From Squalus acanthias (taxonomy: Eukaryota), in contig CM059431.1 in assembly GCA_030390025.1 (NCBI GenBank), forward strand, positions 135,100,001-135,164,000: a stretch of DNA of 64,000 nt, read 5' to 3'. Position 1 is the first letter of the stretch. Each line of letters starts with the position of its first letter. Shown piece after piece: positions 1,470 to 58,269 of the stretch. The translations under genes were made by a program, and so were the position numbers. The notes below the pieces were generated by a model that ran no database searches, had not been told where the DNA came from, and saw only the letters and a list, made by a program, of their open reading frames with translations.

Positions 1470-2251
1470 GGCCCGGATTTTGCGATCAGTGATGAAGGGA
1501 CAGCGCTCGCTGCTGACCTCGCTGCCCACAAAGATTTAGCAGGCTCTGTGGCATCAGTCTCCCCTATTACAATGCCAATTTCATTCTGTCACCATCTAAA
1601 GGGGATATCTGACATCCAGGAACAGTGAAGTCATCAAGCAAGCTGAGCAGCTATCAGATTGAAGCATTCTCACAAACAGCAAACCAAGAAGTAAAAAACA
1701 CTTCTAAAAACACTGATTATCATTCACTTTTTAATCATTTTACAAAGAACAAAATAAAGATTGGGACATAACGTGGGATTAAGGTAAAAGCTGAAATATC
1801 ATAAACAAACTTTAAAAAATAAAATGAAAATACATTTTTATTAATTAAAAAATCTATGGAATTTTTATCATGCAATGGAGGGAATGACACTCCATACTTC
1901 TAAAATTAGTTTTTCAGGGCCAGAGAGGTTGCTCAGCAGTAATAATGACTTAGTACGCCATTAAAAACTCAGTTACACCTCATTCAACAAGGCTTAACTT
2001 TTTCAATGATTTTTACAGCAAGAAGAGTGCGTAAGTTGAAGTTCACGTCTAATCACTGATTCTGTGCTGATTGCATCTGAGAAGACTGCAACAGTGCACC
2101 CTGTGGAGGAGCAGGGTATCACTGGCAGCAACTTCCGGATTTCCGTGTTTAAGTGCGCATGTGCAGACGCCAGAAGTTGCTGTGAGTTTTGCACAGTAAT
2201 GACAGCGAACACTGACAGTTTTGCCGACATTACAACTGCAAATTCCAGACC
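1470..2251. mobile_element. Non-autonomous PIF/Harbinger-type element (MITE), 782 bp
   Basis: Imperfect TIRs GGCCCGGATTTTGC / GCAAATTCCAGACC. 3-bp TSD ATT at 1467-1469 and 2252-2254. A related copy lies at ~62810-63494. Confidence 0.75.
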
Positions 2252-2652
2252 ATTACTTCTATCTACATATTTCTGATTCTATCTAGACTTCTGAAAATAT
2301 ATAAAGCAAAAACCTCCCATACAAAAGCAGTAATCAATCATTTCCTATCAAAGCTGAAATTCCAAATAAAACTATACAAACACTTCTGTCCAAATAATGT
2401 TGCAAGATTCTTCATATCTATAATACATTAAAAGTTATTACTTTGCATGTTATTTATAACAAAACAGCCCCCAAACTCAGAATCCCTGTGTTGTCCTAGA
2501 TGTGTGAATGAATCTAATTATTGTTTCAGCATAAATGAGGAGGTATATTAAACTCTGTCAGCAGGTTCTAACAGTCGTTTCTCTGTACCCTACAGAACCA
2601 GTAACCTAATATTAGTTTTGGGTTTCCCTGACAGTCGCATACAAAATTCATA

Positions 2653-3120
2653 GGGGGAAAAATTCAGTTGGTTGCGCCTCCCATTAGCGCCTTAAGAGGG
2701 CGCTAATGGGGCGCAAAGCAACTAGCGTCTGGGCGCAGCAATGTTTGCACCGCTCGCGAACTTAACTAGACATTTTGCGGCGGCGCTAAACACTACCGCC
2801 ACGATCTCCTGCGCCGGCAGATCGTGACGTCAGTCGAGTGCGCAACGCCCCGGTATCGCCCCGGAGCAGATATTGAGTGGCGCCCCCTGCCTTACCGCCT
2901 GACGCTAGCAACGACAGGTTGAGGGGAGCGTTCTGCAGTCATGAAGGGAAAGGGGGAGCGCTATTTAAAGGTGACCGCTTCCTGCCTTTTATTGTTGGTG
3001 CCATTTTTGAACTACGCATTCTGAGAGAGAGAGAGACTTCTGGAGAGATTCAACGTTGTGTGAAGGAGTTTTGGGTACTGAGCAGCACTTTGCAGGTTCA
3101 TTTTGATTTGCCATTCCTTG
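2653..3120 (+). mobile_element. Terminal (transposase-side) region of a Harbinger element, truncated
   Basis: Starts GGGGGAAAAATTCAGTTGGTT, matching the reverse complement of the element end at 21761-21780. Has CpG-rich GGCGCTAA subterminal motifs like those at 43287-43350. Confidence 0.65.
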
Positions 3121-3149
3121 TATCAATTTAGAAAAGACTGTGGGGGCTG

Positions 3150-3780
3150 CACTATGCAGCACAGAATGAGGCCATTCGGCCCATCGTGCCTGTACTGGCT
3201 CTTTGAAAGAGCTATCCGATTAGTCCAACTCCCCTGCTCTTTTCCCATAGTCCTGAAAATTTCTCCTTTTCAAGTATACATCCAATTCCCTTTAGAAAGT
3301 TACTATTGAATCTGCCTCTGTTAATCTTTCCAGTAGTGCATTCCAGATCATAACAACTTGCCCCCCACCCCAGTTCTTTTGCCAATTATCGTTAATCTTG
3401 ACCCTCCTGCCAGAGGAAACAATTTGTCCCTATCTACTTTATCAAAACTCCTGATCATTTTGAACACCTCTATCAGATCTCCCCTAAACCTTTTCTGCTC
3501 TAAGGAGAACAGTCCCAGCTACTCTAGTCTCTCAACATAACTGAAGCCCCTTATTCCTGGTGCCATTCTGGTAAATCTCCTCTGCACCCTTTCCAAGGCT
3601 TTGACATCCTTCCTAAAGTTTGACACTCAGAATTGGACACAATACTGTAGTTGAGTCCTAACCAGTGGTTTATAAAGGTTTTGCATGACTTTCTTGTTTT
3701 TGTGTTCAATGCCCCTATTTACAAAGCCAAGTATCCCATATGTTTTCTTCACCGCCTTAGGAACTTGCCCTGCAAGTTTG
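3150..3780 (-). mobile_element. CR1 LINE 3' fragment
   Basis: Minus ORF 3627-3881 ends with KAVKKTYGILGFVNRGIEHK..LVRTQLQYCVQF. The CR1 3' tail is in reverse at ~3155-3200. Confidence 0.85.
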
Positions 3781-14410: not shown

Positions 14411-17400
14411 CTGCTGAAGACTTGTGCTCCATAACTAGCCAAGCTGTTCCAGTACAGCTACAACACTGGCATCTACCCGACAATGTGGAAAATTGCCCAG
14501 GTATGTCCTGTCCACAAAAAGCAGGACAAATCTAATCCGGCCAATTACCGCCCCATCAGTTTACTCTCAATCATCAGCAAAGTGATGGACGGTGTCATCG
14601 ACAGTGCTATCAAGTGACACTCCCCAATAACCTGCTCACTGATGCTCAGTTTGGGTTCCGCCAAGACCACTCTGCTCCAGATCTCATGACAGCCTTGGTC
14701 CAAACATGGACAAAATACCTGAATTCCAGAGGTGAGGTGAGAGTGACTGCCCTTGAAATCAAGGCAGCATTTGACCGAGTGTGGCATCAAGGAACCCTAG
14801 TAAAATTGAAGTAATTGGTAATCGGGGAAAACTCTCCACTGGCTATAGTCATACCTAGTATAAAGGAAGATGGTTGTGGTTGTTGGAGGTCAATCATCTC
14901 AGCCCCAGGACACCGCTGCAGGAGTTCCTCAGGGCAGTGTTGTAGGCCCAACCATCTTCAGCTGCTTCATCAATAACATTCCCTCCTTCATAAGGTCAGA
15001 AATGGGGATGTTCGCTGATGATTGCACAGCGCAACTCCTCAGATAATGAAGCAGTCCATGCCCACCTGCAGCAAGACCTAGATGACATTCAGGCTTGGAC
15101 TGGCAAGTGGCAAGTAACATTCACGCCACAGAAGTGCCAGGCAATGACCATCTCCAACAAGAGAGAGAGTCCAACCACCAGCCCTTCACATTCAACGGCA
15201 TTACCTTTGCAGAATCGCCCACCATCAAAATCCTGGGGGCCACCTTGATCAGAAACTTAACTGGATCAGCCACATAAATACTGTGGCTACAAGAGCAGGT
15301 CAGAGGCTGGGTATTCTGTGGCGAGTGTCTCACAACCTGACTCCCCAAAGCCTTTCCACCATCTGCAAGACACAAGTCAGGAGTATGATGGAATACTCTC
15401 CGCTTGCCTGGATGAGTGCAGCTCCAACAACAATCAAGAAGCTCGACACCATCCAAGACAAAGCAGCCATTTGATTGGCACCCCATCCACCATCTTAAAC
15501 ATTCACTCCCTCCACCACCGGCGCACTGTGTACCATCTACAAGATGCACTGCAGCAACTAGCCAACCCTTCTTCATTAGCACCTCCCAAACCCGCGATCT
15601 CTACTACCTAGAAGGACAAGGGCAGCAGGCGCATGGGAACACCATCACCTGCAAGTTCCCCTCCAAATTACACACCATCCTGACTTGGAAATATATCGGC
15701 ATTGCTTCATCATCGCTAGGTCATCAATCCTGTAACTCCCTCCCTAACAACTGTAAGGGGTTCGGTCGTAGGTGCTTGTGCGGGGTTAGGCCTTCGTTGC
15801 CTAATGCTATTGCTTGCTCTGGTCTCCAGCCAGCCCTGTTGCAATAAGCACCTGTGAGTGGTTCGACCCACTCGCCCTTACGGTTCTGACACTGGACTTA
15901 GATGCGAGAGCAGTAATGCAGAGAAAAACTCAAATAGACCCGGTTGAATAGTACGAAATGGAAATCTTTATTGCATAGCATCCAAAATCATGAAGTACAT
16001 GTCATAGGCACAAATTAATGACAGTACAAGTATACATACATTCATAAAGCTTGGTCTAGGGTAATGAGGAACGCACGGCACATCGTAAAAAGGGGAACAC
16101 ATTATATTTTATCCTTAATAAAACCACCCTCCCCTATCAATACCTACACTATATCTAGATTTGTAGGATCGGGACACATGCTCACCACTCGTGATACTTC
16201 GGAGAATTATAAACGAGGCACTCGGCTTGTTTTGCTGCAGTACCTGACTGTCACGTGTTGGAAGGGGTCTCTGTACCCCACTTGTTTATCTTCTCTGCTC
16301 CGGCTAGCAGGCTAGGCTCCCCGTTGTCATGAAGAACTCGACAGTGCTCGGGCCCGGCTGTAGAACTCAAAGAAAAGTCTTTCTGGACCGACACCAGTTA
16401 CCGGTAAAATTCAAAGAAGAGTCTTCCTGTATCGACACCGGTTGTCGATAGAATTCGAAAGAGAGTCTTCCACTGGTCCGGGCAGCAACCTGATAGAGTT
16501 CAAAAATGGTCTTTATATTTACGGGCGCGGTCGGGGTTTACTGACCGCGGCGGCACGTGGATTCTTCTTCTTCTCTTCTCATCTCGTCTTGTCGGGCCTT
16601 CGGGTCCAAAACACTGTTTACCGACGCTCGGGATGGTGCACCCGATCACTGGCCTTCGTCGGGGCGGTTCGTTCTGCTTGAGCTCCACCCAACATTCGAG
16701 TAACCGTCCAGCACGGCTAGAGTCCAGAGGCAACAGAAGGCTGCTCGTCCAACAGAGCGATACCCGAGGATAAGGATAAGAGATCGATGGACATTTGTTG
16801 TCTATAGTTATAGTGCTGGGTTCCCTTATCTCCCGCCCAAATCTTAATGTTCATCCTTTGTAAAATCTTGGCGCTCAAAATTCCCAGTATGGGGTGATTC
16901 TTGTTTGTAATGGGTTTCGGTAGCACCTGAGACTGGCCAACTACCCGTTAATGTTTTCCCCATTGTGGAACCGGCTAGGAGCCTCTCTGGCGGGGTTTTG
17001 GGGGCCTCCGAATACTTGTGTAAGCACCCGAGAATGGCTCTCTCATTGTAGAGCCGTGGGGGAATTTGCGTATTGATGTATCGGGATGGGCCTTCGATTG
17101 CCCAGTACAATGGTCCTTACTTGTGCATGGAAAACGATTCCAGCACTTATATCTCTTGCTATTGTGTCGAATGCAGACAGGTTGTGTCTTGTCTTTATCA
17201 GTGTTTGCTGAGTATTGTCCAATCTTATACTGAAATGTATATTCGAACGCCATCTTGTCTGCCCACTGAAAATTCTGGAAGCTTCTGCCACGAGGTGCGG
17301 CGGCCATTTTACAGGCTTCTGTGTCCTGTCTAATCATGACAGCATTTTGTTTAAATAAAACTGATGAAACGAATCTGCTTTATCTCGTTATTTCGAATCG

Positions 17401-17525
17401 CGATAATTGCGAATTTTACACAACGCTATGGGAGTACCTTCACCTCACGGACTGCAGCGGTTCAAGAAGGCAGCTCACCACCAACTTCTCAAGGGCAATT
17501 AGGGATGGGCAATAAATGCTGGGCC
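14411..17525 (+). mobile_element. RT/3' half of the second (tRNA-headed, CR1/Jockey-group) LINE family, split by a solo LTR
   Basis: QFGFRQDHSAPDL..KAAFDRVWHQG and RSMMEYSPLAW motifs. The 3' end (CAAGGGCAATTAGGGATGGGCAATAAATGC) resumes at 17421 after the LTR. Confidence 0.9.
15752..17420 (-). mobile_element. Solo LTR (ERV or Gypsy), 1669 bp
   Basis: TGTAAGGGG...TTTTACA termini. 4-bp TSD CAAC at 15748-15751 and 17421-17424. The host LINE is contiguous across it. Minus-strand AATAAA at 15967-15972 and TATA-like sequence at 16511-16521. Confidence 0.9.
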
Positions 17526-25911: not shown

Positions 25912-28900
25912 CTTCACAACGACATGCAAGCCGTGATCCTGACCAACGGTTCCACCACAGACCCAATTCATGTACAGACCGGGGTCAAGCAAGGCTGTGT
26001 CATCGCACCAATGCTCTTCTCGATCTTCCTTGCTGCAATGCTCCATCTCACCCTCGGTAAGCTCCCCACTGGAGTGGTGCTAATTTACAGAACAAATGGG
26101 AAACTGTTCAACCTTCGTCGCCTCCAGTCCTGATCCAAGGTCATCCCATCCTCTGTCGTCGAATTACAGTATGCAGACGACGCTTGCGTCTGCGCACACT
26201 CTGAGGTTGAACTGCAGACCATAGTCAACACCTTCACCGAAGCGTACGAGAGCATGGGCCTTACACTAAACATCCGAAAGACAAAGGTCCTCTACCAACC
26301 TGCCCCTGCCACACAGTACTGCCCCCCGATTATCAAAATACACGACAAAGCCCTGGACAACGTGGACTACTTTCCATATGAGTGAGGCAGGTACGGGGAT
26401 CCAGGAGGTAGTATTGCAGGAGCCTCAGTCCCTGAATCCAATAGATTCGAGGTTCTTGCAAACCTTGTGGACAAGTGCGGGGACTGTGGGGTCGACGAGC
26501 AAACTGACCACGGCACCATGGTACAGGAAGCCATTCAAGTGGGGGGAGTAAAAAGGAAGGTGGTTGTAGTAGGCGACAGTATAGTTAGGGGGATAGACAC
26601 TGTTCTCTGCAGCCAGGAGCGTGAGTCTCAAAGGCTATGTTGCCTACCCGGTGCCAGGGTAAAGGACATCTCCTCTGAGTTGGAGAAGAACTTGGAGTGG
26701 GAGGGGGAGGATCCAGTTGTCATGGTCCACGTAGGTACCAATGACATAGGTAGGACAAAGAAAGAGGTTCTGCTGAGAGAGTTTGAGCAGCTAGGGACTA
26801 AATTAAAAAGCAGAACCACAATGGTCATAATCTCTGGATTATTACCGGAGCCACGAGCAAATTGGCATAGGGTCAATAGGATCAGGGAGATGAATGCATG
26901 GCTCAAAGATTGGTGTGGGAGAAGTGGGTTTTGATCCGTGGAGCACTGGCACCAGTACTGGGGAAAGAGAGAGCTGTTCCATTGGGACGGACTACACCTG
27001 AACCATGCTGGGACCAGAGTTCGAGCAAATCGAATAAGTCGGGAGGTAGATAGGGCTTTAAACTAAATAAAGGGGTGGAGGGTCCCAGTGGAGAAAATCT
27101 AGAATGCTAAAGAGAAAAGACAAGGAAGCAGTTCAGGAAAATGATTGGGGTAAGGATAACCAGATTGTGTCAGGAAGGGACAGAGCGTACAAACAAAGGA
27201 GTGCACTAAAAAATAGGGTCCGGGTAAGAAAAAATGGTAATAAGACAAATAGCACCACAGTACATAAAAATGTTAAGATGTCTAAAAATGTTAAAAAGAC
27301 AAATCTAAAGGCACTGTATCTGAATGCATGAAGCATTCGTAATAAGGTAGATGAATTAACAGCGCAAATAGATGTAAACAGATACGATATAATTGCGATT
27401 ACGGAGACATGGCTGCAGGGTGACCAAGGCTGGGAGCTGAATATCCAAGGATATTCGATATTTAGGAAGGACAGGCAAAAAGGAAAAGGAGGTGGGGTGG
27501 CATTGTTAGTAAAGGATGAAATCAGCGCAATAGTGAGAAAGGATATTAGCTCAGAAAATCAAGATGTAGAATCAGTCTGGGTGGAGCTAAGGAGCACCAA
27601 GGGGCAGAAAAAATTGGTGGGAGTTGTCTGAAGGCCTCCAAACAGCAGTGGTAATGTAGGGGATGGCATCAAACAGGAAATTAGAGATGCATGTAACAAG
27701 GGTACTACAGTAATCATGGGTGACTTTAATCTACATATAGACTGGCCAAACCAAATTAACAATAATACTGTGGAGGATGAATTCCTGGACTGTGTACGAG
27801 ATGGTTTTTTAGACCAGTACATTGAGGAGCTAACTAGGGAACAGGCTCTCCTAGATTGGGTATTGTGCAATGAGAAGGGTTAATTAATAATCTTGTTGTG
27901 CGGGGTTCTTTAGGGAAGAGTGACCATAACATGATAGAATTCTTCATTAAGATGGAAAGTGAAGAAGTCCAATCCAAAACTAAGGTCCAAAATCTCAACA
28001 AAGGAAACTATGAAGGTATGAGGAGGGAGTTGGCTATGATAGATTGGGGAGCTTCCTTGAAAGGCATGATAGTGGATAGGCAATGGCTAACATTTAAGGA
28101 ACGAATGCATGAATTGCAACAGTTATACATTCTTTTCTGGCGCAGAAAACACAAAAGGAAAAGTGGCCCAACCATGGCGAACAAAAGAAATTTAGGATAG
28201 TATTAGATCCAAAGAGGAGTCATATAAAGTTGCCAGAAAAAGTAGCAAGCCTGAGGATTGGGAGCAGTTTAGAGTTCAGCAAAAAAGGACCAAGAGATTG
28301 ATTAAGAGGGGAAAAATAGAGTATGAGAGTAAACTTGAAAGGAACATAAAAGCGGATTGTAAAAGCTTCTACAAGTATGTAAAAAGAAAAAGATTAGTGA
28401 AGACAAATGTAGGTCCCTTACAGTCAGAACAGGAGAATTTATAATGGGGAACAAGGAAATGGCAGAGCAATTAAACAAATACTTTGGTTCTGTCTTCACG
28501 GAAGAGGACACAAATAACTTCCCAGAAATGCTAGGGAACCAAGGGTCTAGTGAGAAGGAGGAATTAAAGGAAATTAGTATTAGTAAAAAAATAGTGCTGG
28601 AGAAATTAATGGGACTGAAAGCCAATAAATCCCCAGGGCCTGATAATCTGCATCCCATAGTACTAAAAGAGGTAGCCATGAAAATAGTGGATGCATTGGT
28701 TGTCATCTTCCAAAATTCTATAGATTATGGAACAGTTCCTGCAGATTGGAGGGTGGCAAATGTAACCCCACTATTTATAAAAGGAGGGAGAGAGAATACA
28801 GGGAAGTACAGATCGGTTAGCCTAACATCAATAGTAGGGAAAATGCTAGAGTCTATTATAAAGGATGTGATAACAGGACACTTAGAAAATATCAACGGGA

Positions 28901-30982
28901 TTAGACAAAGTCAACATGGATTTATGAAAGGGAAATCGTGTTTGACAAACCTACTGGAGTTTTTTGAGGATGTAACTGGTAGAATAGATAAGGGAGAACC
29001 AGTGGATGTGGTGTATCTGGATTTTCAGAAGGCCTTTGATAAAGTCCCACATAAGAGGTTAGTGTGCAAAATTAAAGTACATGGAATTGGGGGTAATATA
29101 CTGGCATGGATTGAAAATTGGTTAACAGACAGGAAACAGAGAGTAGGAATAAATGGGTCTTTTTCGGGGTGGCAGTCGGTGACGAGTGTGGTACCGCAGG
29201 GATCGGTGCTTGGGCCCCAGCTATTCACAATATATATCAATGATTTGGATGAGGGAACCAAATGTAATATTTCCAAGTTTGCTGACGACACAAAACTAGG
29301 TGGGATTGTGAGTTGTGAGGAGGATGCAAAGAGGCTTCAAGGTGATTTAGACAAATTGATTGAATGGGCAAATACATGGCAGATGCAGTATAACGTGGAT
29401 AAATGTGAAGTTATCCACTTCGGTAGGAAAAACAGAAAGGCAGAGTATTATTTAAATGGTGATAGATTGGGAAATGTTGATGTACAGAGGGACCTGGGTG
29501 TCCTTGTACATCAGTCACTGAAAGCAAACATGCAGGTGCAGCAAGCAGTTAGGAAGGCAAATGGTATTTTGGCCTTCATTGCAAGAAGATTTGAGTACAG
29601 GAGCAAGGATGTCTTACTACAGTTATACAGGACCTTGGTGAGACCACATCTGGAGTATTGTGTGCAGATTTGGTCTCCTTACCTAAGAAAGGATATACTT
29701 ACCATAGAGGGAGTGCAGCGAAGGTTCACCAGACTGATTCCTGGGAAGGCAGGACTGTCGTATGAGGAGAGATTAGGTCGACTAGGCCTGTGTTCACTAA
29801 AGTTTAGAAGAATGAGAGGGGATCTCATTGAAATGTATATAATTCTGACAGAGCTAGACAGACTGGATGCAGGGAGGATGTTTCCCCTGGCTGGGGGGTC
29901 TAGAACGAGGGGTCACAGTCTCAGGATACAGGGTAGGACATTTAAGACTTAGATGAGGAGAAATTTCTTCACTCAGAGGGTGGTGAACCTGTGGAATTCT
30001 CTACCACAGAAGGCTGTGGAGGCCAAATCACTGAATATATTTAAGAAGGAGATAGATAGATTTCTAGACACAAAAGGCATCAAGGGGTATGGGGAGAGAG
30101 CGGGAATATGGTATTGAGATAGAGGATCAGCCATGATCAATTTGAATGGCAGAGCAGGCTCAAAGGGCCGAATGGCCTACTCCTGATCCTATTTTTCTAT
30201 GTTTCCATATTTTTATACCTCGGAAGCCTACTGTCAACAAGGGCAGACGTCGATGACAAAGTCTAACACCGCCTTCAATGTTCCAGTGCAGCCTTCAGTC
30301 ACCTGAGGAAGAGAGTGTTTGAAGACCAGGACCTCAAACCCGGCACCAAGCTCATGGTCTACAGAGCAGTAGTGATACTTGCCCTCCTGTATGCCTCAGA
30401 GACATGGACCATGTACAGCAGGCACCTCAAAGCACTGGAGAGGTACCACCAACGCTGCCTCCGCAAGATCCTGCAAATCCATTGGCAGGATAGCCACACC
30501 AACGTCAATGTTCTCACTCAGGCCAACATCCCCAGCATCGAAGCTTTGACCACGCTCGATCAGCATGCCCGATACGAGACTCCCAAAACAAGCGCTCTAC
30601 TTGGAGCTACGACACGGCAAGAGAGCCCCAGGTGGGCAGAGGAAACGCTTCAAGGACACCCTCAAAGCCTCCTTGAAAAAGTGCAACATCCCCACCGACA
30701 CCTGGGAATCTCTGGCCCAAGACCGCACAAAGTGGAGGAGAAGCATTCGGGAAGGCGCCGAACACCTCGAGTCTCTTCGCCGGGAGCAAGCGGAAGCCAA
30801 GCGCAAGCAGTGCAAGGAGCGCACGTCAACCCAAGCACCCCACCCACCCGGCCCTTCAACCACCGTCTGCCCCACCTGTGACAGAGTCTGTAGGTCCCGC
30901 ATTGGACTCATCAGTCACCTGAGAACTCATTTTTTATGTGGAAGCAAGTCATCCTCGGTTCTGCGGGACTACCTAAGAGAAG
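25912..30982 (+). mobile_element. 5'-truncated RTE-clade LINE split by a CR1
   Basis: TGVKQGCVIAP, LQYADD and FPY|YLGS joined across the CR1 insert. LLYASETWT motif, C-terminal CPTC..H...H zinc finger, GAAGA-type tail. Confidence 0.9.
26380..30201 (+). mobile_element. Near-full-length CR1: ORF1 SGNH esterase part plus APE-RT ORF2, disrupted
   Basis: ORF 26467-26934 (VVVGDSIVRG..CLPGARV..VHVGTND). APE start YLNA at ~27320. 502-aa RT ORF 28444-29952. TTTCCATAT flanks both sides (26371-26379, 30202-30210). Confidence 0.95.
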
Positions 30983-31299: not shown

Positions 31300-34200
31300 T
31301 TGCCGATTATATGACCATTCTGCAAGTTTATTGATGCCTTCTTGTAATTTGTTGCAGTCCTCCTCAGTGTTGACTATCTCAATTTGGTATTGCTACAAAT
31401 TGTGTTTTTGATTCCAAATTCTGAATCATTGATATAAATTGTGAATAACAGTGGTCCCAGCACTTGTGCTTGTGCGAGCCCACCTCCCACCTTCTGCCAC
31501 TCTGAATAGCTATCCTTTACCCTTCTCTCTGATTTATGTCTTGCAGCCAGCTAGCTATCCATTCTACTACTTGCCCCCTGACTCCGCATGCTCTGACCTT
31601 ATTCATTAGTCAATTATGTTTTTTTAATTATTCGTTTATGGGATGTGGGCATCGCTGGCAAGGCCAGCATTTATTGCCCATCCCTAATTGCCCTTGAGAA
31701 GGTGGTGGTGAGCTGCCTTCTTGAACCGCTGCAGTCCGTGTGGTGAAGTTACTGTTAGGTAGGGAGTTCCAGGATTTTGACCTAGCGACGATGAAGGATC
31801 GGCGATATACTTCTAAGTCAGGATGGTGTGTGACTTGGAGGGGAACTTGGAGGTGGTGGTGTTCCCATGCGCCTGCTGCCCTTGTCCTTCTAGGTGGAAG
31901 AGGTCGCGGGTTTGGGAGGTGCTACCGAAGAAGGCTTGGCGAGTTGCTGCAGTGCATCTTGTAGATGGTACACACTGCAGCCACGGTACGCCAGTGGTTG
32001 AGGGAGTGAATGTTTAAGATGGTGGATGGAGTGCCAATCAAGCGGACTGCTTTGTCCTGGGTGGTGTCGAGCTTCTTGAGTGTTGTTGGAGCTGCACTCA
32101 TCCAGGCAAGTGGAGAGTATTCCATCACACTCCTTACTTGTGCCTTGTAGATGGTGGAAAGCCTTTGGGGAGTCAGGAGGTGAGACACTTGCCGCAGAAT
32201 ACCTAGCCTCTGACCTGGGCTTGTTGCCACAGTATTTATGTGGCTGGTCCAGTTAAGTTTCTGGTCAATGGTGACCCCCCAGGATGTTGATGGTGGGGCA
32301 TTTGGTGATGGTAATGCCGTTGAATGTCAAGGGGAGCTGGTTAGATTCTCGCTTGTTGGAGATAGTCATTGCCTGGCACTTCTGTGGCGCGAATGTTACC
32401 TGCCACTTATCAGCCCAAGCCTGAACGTCGTCCAGGTCTTGTTGCATGCGGGCATGGACTGCTTCATTATCTGAGGAGTTGTGAATGGCACTGAACACTG
32501 TGCAGTCATCAACGAACATCCTCATTTCTGACCTTATGTTGGAGGGAAGGTCATTGATGAAGCAACTGAAGATGGTTGGGCCTAGGACACTGCCCTGAGG
32601 AACTCCTGCAGCGATGTCCTTGGGCTGTGATGGTTGACCTTCAACCACCACAACCATCTTCCTTTGTGCTATGTATGACTCCAGCCAGTGAAGCATTTTC
32701 CCCCTGATTCCCATTTACTTCAGAATTACTTGGGCTCCTTGATGCCACACTTGGTCAAATGCTGCCTTGATGTCAAGGGCAGTCACTCTCACCTCACCTC
32801 TGGAATTCAGCTCTTTAGTCCATGTTTGGACCAAGGCTGTAATGAGGTCAGGAGCTGAATGGTTTTGTCGGAACCCAAACTGGGCATCAGTGAGCAGGTT
32901 ATTGGTGAATAAGTGCCGCTTGACAGCACTGTCGATGACACCTTCCATCACTTTGCTGATGATTGAGAGTAGACTGATGGGGCGGTAATTGGCCGGGTTG
33001 GATTTGTCCTGCTTTTTGTGGACAGGACATACCTGGGCAGTTTTCCACATTGTCGGGTAGATGCCAGTGTTGTAGCTGTACTGGAACAGCTTGGCTAGAG
33101 GCGCGGCTAGTTCTGGAGGACAAGTCTTCAGCACGATATCCGGGATGTTGTCGGGGCCCATAGCCTTTGCTGTATCCAGTGCGCTCAGCCATTTCTTGAT
33201 ATCACGTGGAGTGAATCGAGTTGGCTGAAGACTCGCTTCTGTGATGGTGGGAACCTCAGGAGTAGGCCGATATGGATCATCCACTCGGCACTTCTGGCTA
33301 AAGATGGTTGCGAACGCTTCAGGCTTGTCTTTTGCACTCACGTGCTGGGCTCCACCATCATTGAGGATGGGGATATTCACGGAGCCTCCTCCTCCCGTTA
33401 GTTGTTTAATGGTCCACCACCATTCAAGACTGGATGTGGCAGGACTGCAGAGCTTTGATCTGATCTGTTGATTGTGGGATCGCTTAGCCCTGTCTATAGC
33501 ATGCTGCTTCTGCTTTTTAGCATGCATGTAGTCCTGTGTTGCAGCTTCCCCAGGTTGTTACCTCATTTTTAGGTACGCCTGGTGCTGCTCCTGGCATGCT
33601 CTTCTACACTCGTTATTGAGCCAGGGTTGGTCCCCTGACTTGGTGGTAATGGTAGAGTGAGGGATATGCCGGTATATGAGGTTACAGATTGTGGTGGCAT
33701 ACAATTCTGCTGCTGTTGATGGCCCACAGCACCTCATGGATGCCCAGTTTTGAGCTGCTAGATCTGTTCTGAATCTATCCCATTTAGCACAGTGGTAGTA
33801 CCACACAACACAATGGAGGGTGTCCTCAGTGTGAAGACGGGACTTCGTCTCCACAATGACTGTGTGCGGTGGTCACCGCTACCAATACTGTCATGGACAG
33901 ATGCATCTGTGACAGGTAGATTGGTGAGGATTAGGTCAAGTAGGTCTTTCCCTCGTGTTGGTTCTCTCACCACCTGTCGCAGGCCCAGAGTGGCAATTAT
34001 GTCCTTCAGGACTCGGCTCGGTGCTACATTGAAATCCTCCACCCATACTACATTCTGTGCCCTTGCTACTCTCAGTGCTTCTTCCAAGTGGTGTTCAACA
34101 AGGAGGAGTACTGATTCATCAGCTGAGGGAGGGCGGTAGGTAGTAATCAGCAGGAGGTTTCCTTACCCATGCTTGACCTGAAGCCATGAGACTTCATGGG

Positions 34201-35375
34201 GTCCAGAGTCAATGTTGAGGACTCTTTGGGCCACTCCTTCCCAACTCTATGTCCTGCCGGTGGGACAGGACATACCAGGGATGGTGATGGCGAAGTTTGG
34301 GACATTGGCTGATGTGAATATGACTATGTCAGGCTATTGCTTGACTAGTCTGTGGGGTAGCTCTCCCAATTTTGGCACCAGTCCCCAGATGTTGGTGAGG
34401 AGGACTTTGCAGGGTCGACTGGGCTGGGTGTGGCGTTGCTGTGTCCGCAGCTGGTGCCGAGGTTGATGCCGGGTGATCCGTCTGGTTTCATTCTTATTAT
34501 TGTTTTTCGTAGCAGTTTGTTACAACTGAGTGGCTTGCTTGGCCATTTCAGAGGGCAGTTAAGAGTCAACCACATTGCTGTGGGTCTGAAGTCACATATA
34601 GGCCAGACCAGGTAACGATGGCAGATTTCCTTCCCTAAACTGAACCAGATGGGGTTTTTATGACAATCCGATAGTTTCATGATACTCGCTTTTTATTCCA
34701 AAAATGAACTTCAATTTTAGATTTATTTAATTAACTTCCCCAGCTTTCATGGTGGGATTTGAACTCCCGTCTCGGTTTCATTAGGTCACTGGATTATTAG
34801 GCCCAGTGACAGTGACAGTACCACTACGCTACTGATCCCGTACCTTATCAAAGCCCTTTGGAAATCTAGATATATTACATCTACTTAATTACCCTTGTTT
34901 ACTCATTCTGTTACCTCTTCAAAGATTTCAATGAGATTGGTCAAGCAAGACTTTCCCTTTTTGAAATCCCTGTTGAGTATTTATTATTTTTGTTTTCCAG
35001 ATGGTTTTCTATTTTCTCCTTTATTCGGGATTCCATTATTTTTACTACTACTGATGTTAAGCTGACTAATCTATAGTTCCCTGGACATGTTCTATCTCTC
35101 TTCTTAAATATGGGTATAACATTAGCTATCCACCAGTCCTGTGACACTAAAACTTTTTTTAATGAATTATTAAATATGCGTAATAGTGCCTCTACTAATT
35201 CTTCCCTAGATTCTTTTAAAATGCGTGGATGCAGTCTGTCCGGACCTGGGGTTTTATCCCCTTTGAGTTTGATTAGTTAATTTAACATTCCTCCTCTTTT
35301 TATTTTAACTGCGGTTAATCATTTCTAATCTCATCTTCCAATGTCAGGTCCACCTGATCTGTATCCGAATAGTTT
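31300..35375 (-). mobile_element. Old CR1 RT fragment, split by the LINE at 31618-34832
   Basis: CR1 RT-like sequence at 31300-31617 and 34838-35375 (minus ORF DWWIANVIPIFKK..GNYRLVSLTSVV). Confidence 0.75.
31618..34832 (-). mobile_element. Essentially full-length single-ORF (APE-RT) LINE with a tRNA-like 5' head; frameshifted
   Basis: A-rich 3' end at ~31618. RT ORFs 31922-33527 (GVPQGSVLGPTIFSCFINDLP). APE start KVLLTNIWGL at ~34400. Minus-strand A box TAGCGTAGTGG at 34821-34831 and B box GAGTTCAAATCC at 34755-34766. Confidence 0.9.
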
Positions 35376-37799: not shown

Positions 37800-38566
37800 T
37801 ATATGGAAGCACAGTATAGTTTGTGCAAAGAATTATAATAGAAAGGTTAAGGCGCTTCTGTGGTGCTATAGAGACATCTTGATTTATCATGTTTTCACTC
37901 CATCGGTGGTATCTTCCACCAAGAATCTAGGCCCTTCACGTCAGGTTGTCAATACAAAGTACGGAAAAATTGGAGCTCAAAAAGTGAATTTTTTTGTATT
38001 CTGGACTACTTTTCTGAGGCTAAATTAAGGAGAGGAAAGAGGTTGGAAATGACTCTTCCCTGCTGCTCACCCCTTACACACCATAGCAGTTATATACATC
38101 CATTGCTAATGGTTTCTATTCTGAGGGTAGAAGACTGGAAGCACATAATACATTCTTGCAGCACAGTCTGCATTATTTGAGAAGCAGCTTAAGCCAGTGA
38201 CATTCAGTATGCATTTTTCTGCTTCATCATAAACTTCCTTGTGCACTGACAAGAAGCTTAAATAGTTATTCATAGAGCAGATTTATAGGTACTTTGGAGA
38301 AGAGTGAGCGTCAGGCTCCCATAATTCATTTCATGATAATTAAAAAAATAACATATTATTGGTAAACATCTGAAAAATCACTGTGTGCAACAGGATTGGT
38401 AGCTGTGTTTTATTCCCTCCCCTTTTTTGTTTTTACCTTTGCATTTGGTATCATGTTTCAGTGATGACAAAATGTTGTCAATATCTGACCACGTGAAAGT
38501 TAAAAAAAAAATGAACATGATGTCACAACGTTATTGGTGCTCCAACATGCTGTGCAGCTCTAAGGT

Positions 38567-39365
38567 GGGACATAAGCTAGCACCTCCTATTCCCTGGGCT
38601 TTGAGTTCCCTATGGGACATGAGCCAGCATCTCCTATTCCCTGGGCCTTGAGTTCCCTATGGGACATGTGCCAGCACCTCCTATTCCCTGGGCCTTGAGT
38701 TCCCTATGGGACATGTGCCAGCACCTCCTATTCCCTGGGCCTTGAGTTCCCTATGGGACATGTGCCAGCACCTCCTATTCCCTGGGCCTTGAGTTCCCTA
38801 TGGGACATGTGCCAGCACCTCCTATTCCCTGGGCCTTGAGTTCCCTATGGGACATGTGCCAGCACCTCCTATTCCCTGGGCCTTGAGTTCCCTATGGGAC
38901 ATGTGCCAGCACCTCCTATTCCCTGGGCCTTGAGTTCCCTATGGGACATGTGCCAGCACCTCCTATTCCCTGGGCTTTGAGTTCCCTATGGGACATGAGC
39001 CAGCACCTCCTATTCCCTGGGCCTTGAGTTCCCTATGGGACATGTGCCAGCACCTCCTATTCCCTGGGCTTTGAGTTCCCTATGGGACATGTGCCAGCAC
39101 CTCCTATTCCCTGGGCTTTGAGTTCCCTATGGGACATGTGCCAGCACCTCCTATTCCCTGGGCTTTGAGTTCCCTATGGGACATGTGCCAGCACCTCCTA
39201 TTCCCTGGGCCTTGAGTTCCCTATGGGACATGTGCCAGCACCTCCTATTCCCTGGGCCTTGAGTTCCCTATGGGACATGTGCCAGCACCTCCTATTCCCT
39301 GGGCCTTGAGTTCCCTATGGGACATGTGCCAGCACCTCCTATTCCCTGGGCTTTGAGTTCCCTAT
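38567..39365. repeat. Minisatellite with a 47-bp unit, ~17 copies
   Basis: Unit GCCAGCACCTCCTATTCCCTGGGCYTTGAGTTCCCTATGGGACATGW starts every 47 bp from 38576 to 39328, with no spacers. Confidence 0.97.
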
Positions 39366-42930: not shown

Positions 42931-43369
42931 TACATTTCTGCAGTACACCCATATGGAAGTCACATGCAGCTGAGCAGAGCTGGGAACATCCTGCTCCCTC
43001 CAGTGAGGAGTCTCCACTGCTGTCTCTGTCTCCACCATCTCCTCTTGCTCACTTGTGACTTGTGAGACACCAGGTGACAACACTACGCTGTCTCGCGTAG
43101 GACTAACCGAGGCGCTGGTGCTCGGTGCGCTTATGTCTGCTGACGCTGCACCCTCAGAGGCTGGAGGCTTCTCTGAAAAGTCCTCTTCCTCTTCCTCCTG
43201 GACAGTGTGGGGGGGGGGGGGGGGGAGGGGCAGGGCTGTGCTCTTGATGGACCTGTGGGAAAGTAAAGAGATGATTTAGAAATCTAGGGGGAGAAATTCG
43301 GTACCTTAGCACCTCCAGTCAGCGCCTGGCGGGGGCGCTAATGGGGCAATGAGCCAGTAGCGAGAAAGA

Positions 43370-44453
43370 TTGGAACATGCGGCCATAGGGAGGAGGAGGG
43401 CCATGAGGGCTCTCAACAAGAGACCTTACCCTCCGAGGGTCTTCCGACAGCACTTCTCCTACCTTCAATTAAGCGAGGAGCAGTGTATTAGAAGGCCCCG
43501 CTTCACCAAGGAGGTGGCCACAGAACTCTGCCACCTCCTGCAACCAGACCTCGAGCCGCAGATCAGGACGAGGACAGCTCTCTCAGTGGCAGTCAAGGTC
43601 ACCGTCGCCCTCAATTTCTTTGCCAGTGGATCCTTCCAGTCTGCAGCAGGAGACATAGCTAACATCTCGCAGTTCGCCGTCTATTGCTGCATCTGGGAGG
43701 TCACAGAGGCTCTCTACAGTAGGAGAAGGGACTACATTTCCTTCCCCATCACCAGAGAGAAGCAGGACGAGTATGCATGTGGCTTTACCAGGATAGCGGG
43801 CTTCCCCATGGTGCAGGGCGCCATTGATTGCACCCAAGTCGCTTTGCGGGCACCCCATAATAATCCTGAAGTCTTCTGTAACTGCAAAAGCTACCACTCA
43901 CTTAATGTCAAGTTGGCATGTGACCACAGACTGCGAATCCTCAATGTGAATGCCTGCTATCCTGGCAGCAGTTACAATGCCTTCATCCTGCACCAGACCG
44001 GTGTGCCAGCACTCTTCCAGCCACCACATCAAGCTTGCGGCTGGCTGGTCGGAGACTCCCCTCCGCAACCCCAACACTCCTGCCCAGCACTCATATAATG
44101 AGAGCCATGCTGCCACCAGGAGCATCATTTTACAGACCATCGGGGTACTCAAGCAACGGGTCCACTGCCTTGACCGCTCGGGAGGAGCCCTCCAGTACTT
44201 GGCTGAGCAGGTGTCCCATTTCGTCGTCGTCTGCTGCACGCTCCACAATTTGGCCATCATGAGGGCCCAACCCTTGCCACCAGGGATTGCGGGACCACCT
44301 CAGGAGGAGGAAGAGGGAAAGGAGGAGGACGAGGAGGAAGAGGAAGATGAGGAAGAGGAGGAGGAGGAACAGGAGCGAGGGAGGAGGCAGCCACTCAATT
44401 GGCCTTCCGGAAGGGCAGTCCGTGACCGCCTCATCAGACTGTGGTTCCAATAA
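43370..44453 (+). pseudogene. HARBI1-like DDE transposase pseudogene of the inner Harbinger
   Basis: GFPMVQGAIDCTQV, YHSLNV, GWLVGD and YNESHAATR..CCTLHN motifs. Deletion/frameshift at ~44055. Confidence 0.92.
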
Positions 44454-46492: not shown

Positions 46493-48582
46493 AGTACAGC
46501 TGGTTGAGTCGTCTGGCTCCTTGGACTTGGCCTGCTCTTGCTTGCTGACACAGGTTCAGAGCCAGCAATGCTGAGAATGAGGTTCTGCAGCATGAATGAA
46601 CCTCCCCTTTAAGAACTGGAAAGAGCCTGTGGCAATGATGACTTGCGATTAGACTGCACCTGATATTGGTTAGCGCTTTGAGTGTAACGCCACTGAGCTA
46701 GGCCGTTAGTGCTTGATTTAACGCACCCATCCTTTCTTTGAACGATGACACTGAATTTTGCGTGCAGCGAGATTCATTAGTGCCTGGCGCTAAATCTCAA
46801 ACTTTTCCAAAGTTAGCGCCCACTCCTGGGCTATAATGAATTTCTCCCCCCTAATATCAAGAATGGCTAATGATACCATTGTGCACATGATGAACATTCA
46901 CTGGCTGCTGACATCAGTCCCCATATGAGTGACTGCTGTATGCCATGTGGCTGTATTAGATGTAATTCTGTCACCAGATTGCTGAGAGGTCCTCCTCTCT
47001 TCTTCTCCCACCGCCAGCTGCTCTGCAACTCCTGAGACCTCCAGGGCGACCTCCTCTGCTGGAGTCAATGTGGCCAATGATGGAGGGCCATCTCTGGTTC
47101 TCTTCCTCTCCCTCTTATTGTGGGCTCTCTTCTCATGCAAGGAGGGAAAGAAGAGATGTTTGAGTGAGGGTGATGGCATGAATGTAAGGAATGTGTGGGT
47201 TACATCTTTAGAGGGTGACTATAAGGGAGTGGGGTGCCAATGCCAAAGTGCCAATGCTAAGTGGCCTCCTTGTGTGTTGTTAGTTGGTATGATTGCATTA
47301 AGATGAGGGTGAGTGTGAGGGGTGGTTAGTCAGATGGGGATGTGAGTATGTACATAGAGAGAGACGTGCAAGGTATGTTGGTGTGAGCAATGATGTGCAG
47401 GAGCAGGCTTGGGAAGGCAGAGTGATGGGGATGTGATGAGAGGCACAGCAGGATGAAGTTGAGTGTGGCTTTGCACTCACCTTTCCTGATCTCATGAGAT
47501 CCTTGAAGTGCTTCCGGCAGTGCACCCAGGTCCTCCTGACCACATACCTGCTGTTGACCTCCTCTTCTATCTCTAGCCAGGCTATTTTAGTCTCCTGGAG
47601 TGGTCTCTTCCGCCCATCAGCAGGGAAGAGGACCTCCCTGCATGCTCTGACTCCCTCCTCAAAAATATGGAGGGAGTCATTGGAGAAACTGGGTGCAGCC
47701 CTTTGGCTCTGTGACGCCATCTGTGCAAGGCTGAGCAGTAAACAGATGCTGAAATGTACTGCCTGCAGAATCCTAGACGAACCTTCAAATGCAATGTGGC
47801 CAAGGCTGCTTTAAATATCCCGGCTGGAAAGAGTCATTGATGATGTCATCAGACCCGCACCATTTAATAGGGCCGGGTAACGTGCAGGGCTGCCTTAATA
47901 GGCGCCATTAAGGGAAAGTCGCTCTGAGAAGTGGGATGAAAAGAAGAATGGGGTCCCAACCTGCCACGCCGACTGTCCTCACTCGACCCGCCCAGGTAAT
48001 GAAAATTCCGGCCACTGTTACAGCACTGGAAAGGGATGATGTAGTTCAGGGTTCAAAGACAGAATTTATTTGGTTAGAATTAAGGAACAATAGAAGAGCT
48101 GTTATGTTTCTGGGTGTATGGTGGGACAGAGATAAAGGGGCAAATTTGCAGGCAAATTGCAGAAAGATGCAAGAGTAGTGATAATGGGGGACTTCAATTA
48201 TCCTAATATAGACTGGAAAAATAACAGTGTAAAGGGCAGAGAGGAAGAGGAATTCCGGAAATGTGTGCAAGAGAACTTTCTTGATAAGAATGTTTCCAGC
48301 CCAACGAGGAAGGAAGCAGTGCTGGATCTAGATGCAGCACAGAGCGTAACCACAGATTGCAACATCAACTGAGTGGATCGTGAACCGAGTGGGAATTTTA
48401 GAATTTGGTGAGAGTAAGAATTTGGTGGAGAGGGGGAAGGAGGTGCTTCTTTTTGGTTTGTGTAAGCTTGAGGCAGGAAGTATTTAAAATTTTGTTCAGT
48501 GTTTCAATGCTTAGTGCAAGTTAATGTGTCAAAAAAAAACAAAATCCTTAAAATAGACTAAAAGGTCTATAAACAAATAAAA

Positions 48583-49132: not shown

Positions 49133-51067
49133 CCTATAATTAGGGGGATAGATAGCGTCCTCTGCAGCCACGAACAATATTCCCGAAGGGTGTGTTGCCT
49201 GGTGTGTGTGTGTGGTGCCAGAGTAAGGGATATCTCGAAGCAGCTGGAGAGGAATTTGGAAAGGGAGGAGGAAAATCCAGTTGTTGTGGTCTATGTTGGA
49301 ACAAACGACATAGGTAGGAACAGGGAGGAGGTCCTGCTGAGGGAGTATCAGGAGCTAGGAGCTAAATTAAAAAGCAGGACCATGAAGGTAATAATCTCTG
49401 GATTGTTGCCCAAGCCATGTACAAATTGGCATAGAAAAAGACAGATCAGGAAAATTAACATGTGGATAAAGGGCTGGTGTGGGAAAGAGGGGTTCCTTTT
49501 CATGGGACACTGACATCAGTACTGGGAAAGGAAGGAGCTGTAAAGATGGGACAGCTCCACTTGAACCGGAATGGGACCAGTGCCATAGTGGAAAGGGTAA
49601 ATAGGGAGCTGGGAATTAAACATTGCAGGGTATAACATATTCAAAAAAGATAGAGTGGGAAAAAGGGAAGGTGGAGTAGATGTACTTATTAGCGAAAACA
49701 TAATGGCAGTAGAAGAAAGTAAAGCAGCTATCAGTAAGACAGAAATAGAATCCGTGTGGATAGAGATAAAAGATAATGAAGGATCAATCACACTAATAGG
49801 GGTAGTCTACAGACCACCTAATAGTGGAAGGGAGCTGGAGGAAAAAGTATGCAACAAATCAGGAAAATTAGTAGAAATCCTAGAATAATAATCATGGGGG
49901 ATTTCACCTACCCTGAATTAATTGGCCAGAAGAGGTAGATAAAGGGGATAAGTGAATGGAGTTCCTACAATGTGTACAGGACTCCTTTCGAACCCAGTAT
50001 GTAAGAAGCCCAATAAGGGAAGATTTGGGTACTGGGTCTAGTAATGGGGAATGAACCAGAGCAGATAAGAAAAGTAAAAGTAGGGGAACATCTAGGAAAT
50101 AGTGACCATAATATAATATACTTTAAGATAAAAATTGAGATGGACATAAGCATGACAATGACCAGGGTAATAGATTGGAGAAAAGCAGATTTTGAGGGGC
50201 TGAGAATAGAACTTGGGAAAATAAAATGGACAGCAAATATTGGCAAATAATGATGCAGAACAGCAATTGGAAACATTTAAAATGGTGTTCAACAGATTCC
50301 ATGAAAAATATATTCTGGCAAAAAATAAGAACAAACTAAACACTAATGAAACACCATGGATAAATAACGACATAAGGGAAAAATTGAGGGCAAGGAAACA
50401 GATATACACTAAGTACATGGATTGCAGGGGAGAGCATGACAAGGGTGAATATGAAGAGATTGGGAGAGAAGTCAAAAAAACAAAGAGGCAAAGAGGGACT
50501 ATGAAATTAAATAATCAAGGAATTTAAAATAAAATAGTAAAATATTCTATTCTAAAAAAAGGGAAGTCGGGATGGGAATAGGGCCACTAGAGGATGGACA
50601 GCATTAAATCACAGGCAGCGATAGCGAAGTGGCAGAAATATTCAATAATTACTTTGCTTCAGTATTTACCAGGGAGACAGATCAGGTGGGCCTGACATCA
50701 GAGGATGAGATTAGAAATTATATAACTGCATTTAAAATAAAAAGAGGAGAAATATTAAAGAAACTACTCAAACTCAAAGAGGATAAAACCCCTGGTCTGG
50801 ACAGATTGCATCCGCACATTTTAAAAGAATCTAGAGAAGAGATAGCAGAGGCACTATTACACATATTTAATAATTCGTTAGAAAAAGGTGTAGTGCCAGA
50901 GGATGGCGGATACCTATATTTAAGAAGGGAGATAGAACATGTCCATTGAATTATAGAACAGTCAGCTTAACGTCGGTGGCAATAAAAATAATGGATTCCT
51001 ACTAAAGGAGAAAATAGAAAAATATCCAGAAACCAAAAATACAATAATGAATAGTCAGCATGGATTT

Positions 51068-51225
51068 TTAAAAATTCATTCCTAGGATGTGGACATTGCT
51101 GGCAAGGCCAGCATTTATTGCACATCCCTAATTACCCTTGAGAAGGTGATGCTGAGCTGCCTTCTTGAACCACTGCCGTCCTTGTGGTGAAGGTACTCCC
51201 ACAGTGCTGTTAGGGAGGGAGTTCC
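51068..51225 (-). mobile_element. 3'-terminal fragment of the tRNA-headed LINE family
   Basis: Matches 31625-31770. Confidence 0.85.
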
Positions 51226-56071: not shown

Positions 56072-57992
56072 TTCTACTTTGATGATGATTGAGGGTAGGC
56101 TAATGGGGTGGTAATTGGCCATATTGAATTTGTCTTGCTTTTTGTGGACAGGACATACCTGGGCAATTTTCCACTTTGTCGGGTAGATGCCAGTGTTGTA
56201 GCTGTACTGGAACAACTTGGCTAGAGGCGTGGCTAGTTCTGGAGCACAAGTCTTTAGCATTAGAGCCGGGATATTGTCAGGGCCCATTGCCTTTACCGTA
56301 GCCAGTGTGCTCAGCTGTTTCTTGATATCTTGCTTCTTGGAGTGAATCGAATTGGCTGAAGACTGGCATCTGTGATGGTGGGGACCTCAGGAGAAGGCCG
56401 AGATGGATCATGCACTCGGCACTTCTGGTTGAAGATGGTTGCGAACGCTTCAGCCTTGTCTATTGCACTCACGTGCTGGGCTCCACCATCATTGAGGATG
56501 GGGATGTTCACGGAGCCTCTTCCTCCTGTTAATTGTTTAATTGCCCACCACCATTCACAACTTGATGTGGCAGGACTGCAGAGCTTTGATATGATCCATT
56601 GCTTAGCTCTGTCTATAGCATGCTGCTTCCATTGCTTAGCACGCATATAGTCCTGTATTATAGATTCCCTAGGTTGGCACCTCATTTTTAGGTATGCCTG
56701 GTGCTGCTCCTGCAATGCTCTTCTACATTCTTCATTGAATCAGGGTTGGTCACCTGGTTTGATGGTAATGGTACAGTTAGGGATATGCCGGCGATGAGGT
56801 CACAGATTGTGGTGCAGTACAATTCTGCTGCTGCTGATGACCCACAGCACCTCATGGATGCCCAGTTTTGAGCTACTAGATCTGTTCTGAATCTATCTCA
56901 ATTAGCATGGTGGTACACAACACGATGGAGGGTCTCCTCAGTGTGAGGACAGGACTTCGACTCCACAAGGACTGTGCGGTGGTCACTGCTGCTAATGATG
57001 TCATGGACAGATGCATCTGCGACAGGTAGATTAGTGAGGACGAGGTCAAGTAGGTTTTTCCCTCGTGTTGGTTCTCTCACCAGCTGCCGCAAGCACAGTC
57101 TGGCAGCTATGTCCTTCAGGACTCAGCCAGCTCGGTCAGTAGTGGTGCTACTGAGCCACTTCGGTGATAGACATTGAAGTCCCCCACCCAGAGTACATTC
57201 TGTGCCCTTGCTATCCTCAGTGCTTCCTCAGTGCTTCCTCCAAATGGTGTTCAACATGGAGGAGTACTGATTAATTAGCTGATGGAGGGTGGTAGGTGGT
57301 AATCAGCAAGAGGTTTCCTTGCCCATGGTACATAATACCATGAAATTTCATGGGATCCGGAGTCAACATTGAGGACTCCCAGGACTGCTCCCTCCCGACT
57401 GTATACCATTGTGCTGCCACCTTTTGTGGATCTGTCCTGCCGGTGGGACAGGACATACCCAGGGATGGTATGGAGTGGTCTGGGACATTGGCTGAAAGGT
57501 ATGATTCTGTGAGTATGACTATCTCGGGCTGTTGCTTGACTAGTCTGTGGGACAGCTCTCCCAATTTTGGCACAAGGCCCCGAATGTTAGTGAGGATGAT
57601 TTTGCAGGGTTGACTGGGCTGGGTGTGCCTTGCTGTGTCCGAATCCGATGCCTAGGTCGTCCGTTCAGTTTTAGTCTTAATTTACTTCTTCGTAGCAGCT
57701 TGAAACAACTGAGTGCATGCTAGGCCATCTCAGATGGCAGTTGAGAGTCAATCACATTGCTGTGGGCCTGGAGTCACAAATAGGCCAGACCTGGTTTCCT
57801 TCCCTAAAGGACAGTAGTGAACCAAATGGGTTTTCCCCACAATCTGGTAGTTTTATGGTCACCATTACTGATACTAGCTTTTGAATTCCTTATCTATTTA
57901 ATTAACTAAATTTAAAATTCCCAACTGCCATGGTGGGATCATTATTCCAGACCTCTAGGCTACTAGTCCAGTAACATAACACTATGCTACTG
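56072..57992 (-). mobile_element. 5' half (tRNA-like head, APE, RT start) of the tRNA-headed LINE family
   Basis: Homologous to 32955-34832. APE start KIILTNIRGL..IVILTESYL. Head TAGCATAGTG at ~57980-57989 on the minus strand; B box damaged. Confidence 0.9.
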
Positions 57993-58269
57993 TTGGATTT
58001 TTGAGACCCTGACATATTTAAGTATTTAGTTATCTCCATCGGTTATGCACATGGCCAGATGTGGTCAGCGATGTTTTTTGATTTTGTTGGAGGCAGTTCA
58101 TGGTGCTGGCGGGGTTGGTGACTTTAGGGGCCAGGATCTAGTTTTTCCAAATGGTTCTTATTCTTTTGATGAATGTATTTTATTTTGTATTATGCATACT
58201 TCAGTTAGTATTAATTCTTGGGCTTTTCAATGCCATAGTGAGTAAACGCATCATATTGCTGTGGTACTA

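Follow-up and report, generated by a model that had tools for sequence, protein, structure and literature searches.

The closest relatives of the element studied here are the Zenon LINEs that Stuart et al. (2026; PMC13343379, consulted in excerpt) described in sharks, rays, the coelacanth and hagfish. They have no ORF1 and end in a poly-A tail, and the elasmobranch members, ~3.3 kb long with one ORF for an APE endonuclease and a reverse transcriptase (RT), belong to the same family as ours. Lepidopteran Zenon and the SIDE Persaeus (excerpts of PMC6740152), like hagfish and coelacanth Zenon, resemble our element in clade type, single ORF, A tail and internally deleted derivatives, but they have no tRNA head or Pol III promoter, as judged by eye for hagfish and coelacanth and as stated in the lepidopteran excerpts for the Zenon-derived 5′ sequence. 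Conversely, Bov-tA, SINE2-1_ACar, CoeSINE4 and SINE2_Gav (PMC4494074 and PMC5786205, in excerpt) combine a tRNA head with a LINE 5′ region and tail. SINEs of that type are non-coding and their partner LINEs headless, whereas the element in our window carries the head on a full coding element. SINEs are treated as Pol III products unable to encode protein (PMC5786205), and Pol III is said to yield no coding RNA in normal biology (PMC8223928, in excerpt).

We analysed a window of 64,000 nt from Squalus acanthias (contig CM059431.1, positions 135,100,001 to 135,164,000), in which three copies and two tail fragments of the repeat were located (Table 1). The repeat is an elasmobranch Zenon LINE, of a family already published (PMC13343379, in excerpt). 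A 14-nt word of its head matches the SquAca_Zenon-1 and SquAca_Zenon-2 rows in the excerpted supplement of that paper, and by eye the SquAca_Zenon-1 row is only 1-2 positions apart from our family majority sequence over the first 400 nt compared, so that the family is known. The accessible main text contains 0 matches for tRNA, polymerase III, Pol III or start codon and the accessible supplement text 0 matches for tRNA; no discussion of the head, the missing AUG or the T depletion was found in these parts. The tRNA head and the Pol III aspect of the family were likewise not found in the literature searched, nor was any autonomous LINE with a tRNA head reported there, the coverage being thin for subscription journals and Repbase notes.

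Table 1. Zenon copies, their parts and an in-genome control in the window (positions count from the first nucleotide of the window).
Feature	Position	Strand	Remarks
Zenon copy, 5′-truncated, decayed, RT half	14411..15751	+	majority positions ~1796-3188; no sense T4
Fuller Zenon copy, head to tail	31619-34839	-	one of three copies of one repeat
tRNA-like head of full-length copy	34750..34839	-	family +1 at 34839
A box	34821..34831	-	columns nearly invariant except CpG in 22 copies
B box	34755..34764	-	each position kept in 34-36 of 36 copies
T5 run in AT-rich linker	34700..34704	-	copy-specific; missing from majority sequence
Leader	34520..34660	-	conserved from sharks to a ray; stop codon directly before ORF
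ORF: Arg-rich N-terminus, APE endonuclease, RT	31684..34519	-	single frame, broken in this copy
3′ UTR, stem-loop, short A tail	31619..31683	-	AATAAA at 31670-31675
Older Zenon copy, 89.6% to majority	56072..57995	-	head present, 3′ part missing
A box of older copy	57980-57989	-	B box mostly deleted
Tail-only Zenon fragment	51065..51225	-	T5 directly before A tail
Tail-region Zenon fragment	17420..17522	+	same family
CR1 RT frame, in-genome control	28363..29952	+	4 T4 vs 5.0 expected

Other elements share the window. Upstream of the CR1 RT frame lies a GDSL esterase-like frame (26386-26934, plus strand; Pfam), the ORF1 type of vertebrate CR1. A DDE_Tnp_4 transposase piece (43361-44098, plus strand) and, on the opposite strand, a Myb/SANT frame (47298-47810, minus strand) were recognized with Pfam, a pairing that we take to be typical of Harbinger-type DNA transposons. 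A tandem array with a 94-bp period occupies 38566-39365 (~8.5 copies, 95-98% identity), and an Rfam scan of the window returned only two weak, unrelated matches.

At first look, the 3.7-Gb genome yielded 32,170 Zenon LINE candidates, 40 of which were scored. Two genome searches provided 60 loci; L031, which coincides with L001, and L047, which repeats L046, were excluded, and five older copies were added to the set, whose loci are best-scoring matches and not a random sample. A majority vote over 59 copies, namely 58 loci and the window copy at 14411, with the copy at 56072 aligned but kept out of the vote, gave a sequence of 3327 nt with 19.6% T. It opens with the tRNA-like head; an AT-rich linker and a leader as far as nt 339 follow, then an ORF, a short 3′ UTR and an A tail. 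The single ORF, of 973 codons, opens at nt 340 and is preceded only by short frames; Pfam recognized Exo_endo_phos_2 (APE endonuclease) and RVT_1 (RT) in it, and there is no ORF1.

The protein relatives are invertebrate LINEs at 35-40% identity. We built a tree of 106 rows by a quick method with SH-aLRT support only, in which ten rows were less than half filled and from which 56 of 120 proteins and 40 of 80 loci were left out. The family fell in a 66-row clade (SH-aLRT 100), separate from the CR1 of the window, together with lepidopteran, crustacean and amphioxus proteins; the tree held no named Zenon reference. A basic N-terminus precedes the endonuclease in several relatives. A scan of viral_contigs found no relative. 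In passing, an annotated aldo-keto reductase-like protein of Heptranchias (P0082) was seen to contain ~210 residues of the Zenon ORF at 89% identity, reflecting either exon capture or a gene-model error.

The tRNA-like head is the true 5′ end of the family. Nine of 29 copies chosen on whole length reach the head, and all nine start at majority positions 1-13, the truncation points of the remaining 20 being scattered; upstream flanks gave sporadic matches and no extension common to headed copies. The A and B boxes are kept in the copies and, by eye, in all seven published shark and ray consensus rows (SquAca_Zenon-1/-2/-3, CarCar, RhiTyp, ScyCan and HypSab Zenon-1; first 400 nt compared). Each of the seven has a tRNA-like head and 0 T4 (runs of four T) in these 400 nt; the B box is canonical in three and slightly varied in the others, and the sequence between the boxes differs from row to row, again by eye. 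An A- and B-box head at the 5′ end is also the hallmark of tRNA-derived SINEs (SINE2), and the Rfam tRNA match of our head is weak (22.3 bits in the sister copies L032 and L044, where the cut-off is 29 bits). SINE2 elements are short and non-coding, unlike a 3.3-kb element with a 973-codon ORF, so only the short form described below fits that class. With default settings ARAGORN found no tRNA in the window; at 80% sensitivity its 139 calls in 80 metagenome loci were noise and went unused.

No second headed lineage emerged when the 80 metagenome loci were searched by BLAST with the head and tail, the best hit (E=0.029) being no real match. As all headed elements form one lineage, there is one independent case. 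Among shark retroposons, SacSINE1 and the Deu-SINEs are also tRNA-headed (PMC5499810, in excerpt, which reports an L2 as the SacSINE1 partner). Identity with SacSINE1 or a Deu domain was considered and dropped: the SacSINE1 head differs by eye, and short words of the leader had no match in the literature and supplements searched. Three further observations concern the 5′ region and insertion sites. Majority positions 45-75, between the boxes, can form a hairpin whose sequence varies by shark species with its pairing kept (by eye). No target-site duplication was evident by eye in eight full-length copies. The near-full-length copies L040 and L051 have the same 108-nt repeat upstream up to the junction, possibly a shared target repeat.

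Vertebrate Pol III terminates at runs of four or more T, and the earlier note had drawn attention to the lack of such runs in the sense strand of the three copies. Counting bore this out for 14411-15751 (plus strand), 31618-34698 (minus) and 56072-57910 (minus), and the adjoining runs lie only at 34700-34704 and 57914-57917, as it had reported. Both of these are copy-specific, since the majority linker has no T4, in line with its suggestion of post-insertion changes; the second is a one-base gain on a TTT of the family. The T run that it had cited from a neighbouring CR1 ORF is present at about 28956. Taken whole, the three window copies contain 0, 1 and 1 T4, and because base composition predicts only 2.4, 4.5 and 3.4, a single stretch is weak evidence. 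The majority sequence, linker included, has 0 T4 and 7 T3.

The absence of T4 alone is not clearly beyond chance once TT or codon content is fixed. It departs from a mononucleotide null (4.0 expected, P=0.02), but not from a dinucleotide null (1.5 expected, P=0.19), a synonymous-codon shuffle (1.9 expected, P=0.11) or a third-position model (1.8 expected, P=0.14). The earlier note had read the absence as selection for Pol III read-through; on T4 alone, that argument does not hold, the absence being expected under codon and dinucleotide shuffles (P 0.10-0.19). What supports it, in one lineage, is the depletion of wider near-terminator words. Under the codon shuffle, T3 occurred 5 times against 11.3 expected (P=0.0045), TT 74 times against 90.6, and four T within 5 nt once against 5.8 (P=0.0065); the last count was also low under the dinucleotide shuffle (6.9 expected, P=0.0045). 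As a moderately efficient Pol III terminator (PMC8466645, in excerpt), TVTTT was counted as well: TTTT or TVTTT occurred 0 times against 3.6 expected (dinucleotide shuffle, P=0.026). Five T within 6 nt gave no significant deficit (P=0.19). The 4-in-5 and TVTTT measures were picked after the T4 result was known, and the P values carry no multiple-testing correction. The signal is thus one of low T, low TT and T3, and few near-terminator words.

The depletion is both base-specific, affecting T, and strand-specific, affecting the sense strand. By base, 4-in-5 words number 1 for T, 41 for A, 59 for C and 25 for G, and fall below the null for T only; A-runs are normal. C3 and C4 runs too fall somewhat short of the dinucleotide null (P about 0.02), so some low counts are not T-specific. 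With the next base controlled, the deficit of third-position T ahead of a T-initial codon is modest: 8 of 59, where the C-initial comparison gives 54 of 169 (P=0.006) and the A-initial one 42 of 184 (P=0.14). Phe codons, which the earlier note had proposed to compare, lean the same way (15 TTC to 3 TTT) at about P=0.08 by hand against other C/T two-fold codons, which is not significant alone. Phe makes up 1.8% of the family protein, compared with a median of 3.2% and a 5th percentile of 2.1% among 111 relatives known as protein only; low Phe is clade-wide, and no loss of conserved Phe was seen (14 of 17 kept, like relatives). Among subfamily-diagnostic changes, 8 non-CpG changes lead to T, one creating TTT and none T4, too few for a test; likewise, 6 of the 40 difference rows listed (389 in all) add a sense T and none makes a T run, with little power.

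We compared the family with 60 control LINE ORFs, comprising 58 of 80 metagenome loci with frames of at least 400 codons and two CR1 frames of the window, all single contigs rather than majority sequences. The family lies below 60 of 60 controls in T content (0.189) and in the observed-to-expected ratios for TT (0.82), T3 (0.44) and 4-in-5 words (0.17). By z-score, controls as low number 2 for TT, 3 for T3 and 0 for 4-in-5. Copies tell the same story: 60 Zenon copies have 26 T4 in 148 kb (0.18/kb), 8 of them at the tail junction, the sense strands of CR1 from the same genome 110 in 26.1 kb (4.2 T4/kb), and copies of other LINEs 30 in 7.1 kb. The majority of six older copies likewise contains these 7 TTT and lacks T4. 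In inserted copies, C>T changes occur at 17.4 per 1000 away from T and 18.1 next to T, and G>A at 19.3-19.8. Copies therefore regain T at normal, strand-symmetric rates, indicating that the depletion is kept in the active lineage and does not stem from host mutation bias.

It could be argued that a T-poor lineage, owing for instance to a bias in the replication cycle, simply happens to have no T4. The P values for T4 alone would allow this, one of the 60 control ORFs (L081) has zero T4 too, and several measures were tried. We nevertheless consider this account very improbable: for T3, TT and 4-in-5 words no other of the 61 sequences has ratios as low, mutation in the host drives copies in the direction of T, and the coincidence with a tRNA head would be left unexplained.

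The earlier note had held that equal depletion in headless relatives would speak against its reading, and no such depletion is seen in headless relatives whose 5′ end is visible. Of the relatives available as DNA with a 5′ end, L061 is the closest (37% identity, same clade); it lacks a tRNA head, and its 20 T4 compare with 20.2 expected. Two hagfish rows and the coelacanth Zenon row, with 5′ ends and orientation taken as deposited, have no tRNA head and 7, 1 and 5 T4 runs in the first 400 nt (by eye). Counting against the reading, T-poor LINEs whose 5′ end is unknown also have few T4 in their longest frames, namely 0 (L081 and L063) or 2 (L132). Separately, the 5′ UTR of L061 contains a duplicated motif of ~35 nt (L061:385-480), with a similar word in the hagfish Zenon-2 row; it gave no Rfam match and is possibly a ribozyme or promoter element.

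A different view of these data is that the head is a captured SINE piece, vestigial or working with Pol II, and that T avoidance serves other needs, such as avoiding U-rich signals for splicing or decay or, in host introns, antisense A-rich polyadenylation signals. LINE clades differ strongly and heritably in base composition (PMC7140322, in excerpt), the depletion is mostly a general poverty in T and TT (TT O/E 0.71), and many relatives in the clade are Phe-poor. Against this view, sharks and a ray retain the A and B boxes around a changed spacer; CR1 and other LINEs of the same genome and host are undepleted, and 4-in-5 words are still depleted with dinucleotides fixed. We regard this view as unlikely.

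Internally deleted forms also occur. The short form L012:547-941 (minus strand) joins majority positions 11-309 (head and leader) to 3219-3323 (tail) without the ORF, and is a SINE made by internal deletion. In contigs of four other organisms, guessed to be RNA, all 30 bins of the element are covered and ten head-to-tail joints are listed with several breakpoints; strand and start are not readable in these sets, and no listed piece spans the element. Short form and joints share the build of the bipartite SINEs introduced above.

The earliest in-frame ATG of the majority ORF is codon 287, beyond the endonuclease match, and the start is therefore not an AUG. Two ATGs were rejected as starts, one near the ORF start that lies in another frame and appears as ATA in those older copies that cover it, and an in-frame one at majority 313 that is followed by stops in most copies. 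A few bases past the leader, a GCT codon (majority 346-348; window ~34511-34513) is a candidate first codon for non-AUG initiation; it is in frame in the window family and, by eye, also in the CarCar, HypSab, RhiTyp and ScyCan rows. Frame-keeping length changes were found in 9 of 14 copies for the Arg-rich N-terminal stretch, in 1 of 11 for the leader and in 2 of 10 just downstream; those in the N-terminal stretch could arise from short repeats without selection. The leader contains several upstream ATGs and is a candidate cap-independent start element. It folds no better than shuffles (z = -0.06), which leaves an IRES-like structure unsupported.

The missing AUG fits an uncapped transcript. 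It might instead be that labour is split, Pol III making the RNA that is reverse transcribed, hence the T purge, and protein coming from capped Pol II read-through across intact copies. This would account equally well for the head and the depletion; a family of such abundance must often lie inside other transcripts, and the contig sets from other organisms, covering every bin, would suit it. LINE proteins, however, usually act on their own mRNA, a cis preference established for L1, and a non-AUG start behind upstream ATGs poorly suits cap-dependent scanning. We find a division of this kind rather improbable.

The 3′ end has features of its own. All 38 tail ends listed are A-rich, and an AATAAA lies at majority 3270, 45 nt upstream of the tail junction, with a stem-loop in the 3′ UTR. 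Of the 38 tails, 12 carry T4 or a longer run no more than 18 nt from the end, compared with 3 of 38 for a window further downstream; at a look-alike site inside the element, 1 of 37 copies has T4. The T run separating the 3′ UTR from the A tail measures 0 to 17 (for instance in the 51065-51225 fragment, L006, L011 and L018); most junctions are T1-T2, and by eye T1, T2 and T4+ occur and T3 never. B2, Dip and Ves, which are T+ SINEs (PMC8466645, in excerpt), likewise combine a tRNA head, an AATAAA and a variable T run before the A tail, a T run that Zenon has in a third of copies, and in them T runs lengthen after insertion while tails shorten. They differ in being short, non-coding and, as reported in that excerpt, limited to mammals, whereas the Zenon AATAAA sits 45 nt from the junction and most copies have T1-T2. 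The likeness of the junction to a T+ SINE terminator is a lead only.

Given that anatomy, T depletion and a 5′ end fixed at the head have all been shown, transcription of the whole 3.3-kb element by Pol III is our best explanation for the full set of observations, and we think it moderately probable. The head of a SINE most likely joined the Zenon 5′ region through template switching in an elasmobranch ancestor, a process described for SINE birth (PMC5786205). From then on, Pol III would have been the polymerase of the element, starting at the head and reading the full length, and selection on T runs would have come after, the active lineage being purged of sense T runs and near-terminators as a consequence of read-through. 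Termination might take place where a T run occurs at the 3′ end or past it, and the upstream AATAAA may allow polyadenylation like that of T+ SINEs. The uncapped RNA would be translated without an AUG from just behind the conserved leader, as the missing in-frame ATG suggests. The endonuclease and RT would copy this RNA by target-primed reverse transcription, which is established for LINEs.

Parts of this scheme have precedents. Type-2 Pol III promoters can drive a translated reporter, whose output about doubled upon TTTT removal (PMC8223928, in excerpt), and oligo-T content has already served as an argument on polymerase choice for SINEU (PMC4494074, in excerpt). Against a role of Pol III, autonomous LINEs are treated as Pol II-transcribed (Kojima 2018). 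The scheme in its entirety is that of a natural protein-coding unit of Pol III, conserved across sharks and rays: a self-coding vertebrate LINE with a 3.3-kb mRNA that Pol III makes from a tRNA-type promoter inside the element and that needs neither cap nor AUG for its translation, an ORF rewritten against terminators, and SINEs shed by internal deletion. We put it forward tentatively, at a little under an even chance.

If true, a very abundant LINE that joins a SINE promoter to an ORF purged of terminators would break down the division between Pol II for LINEs and Pol III for SINEs, and it would offer a direct route from LINE to SINE. The elasmobranch Zenon family would then also be a natural system in which to study long transcription by Pol III, polyadenylation of Pol III transcripts and translation that needs neither cap nor AUG.
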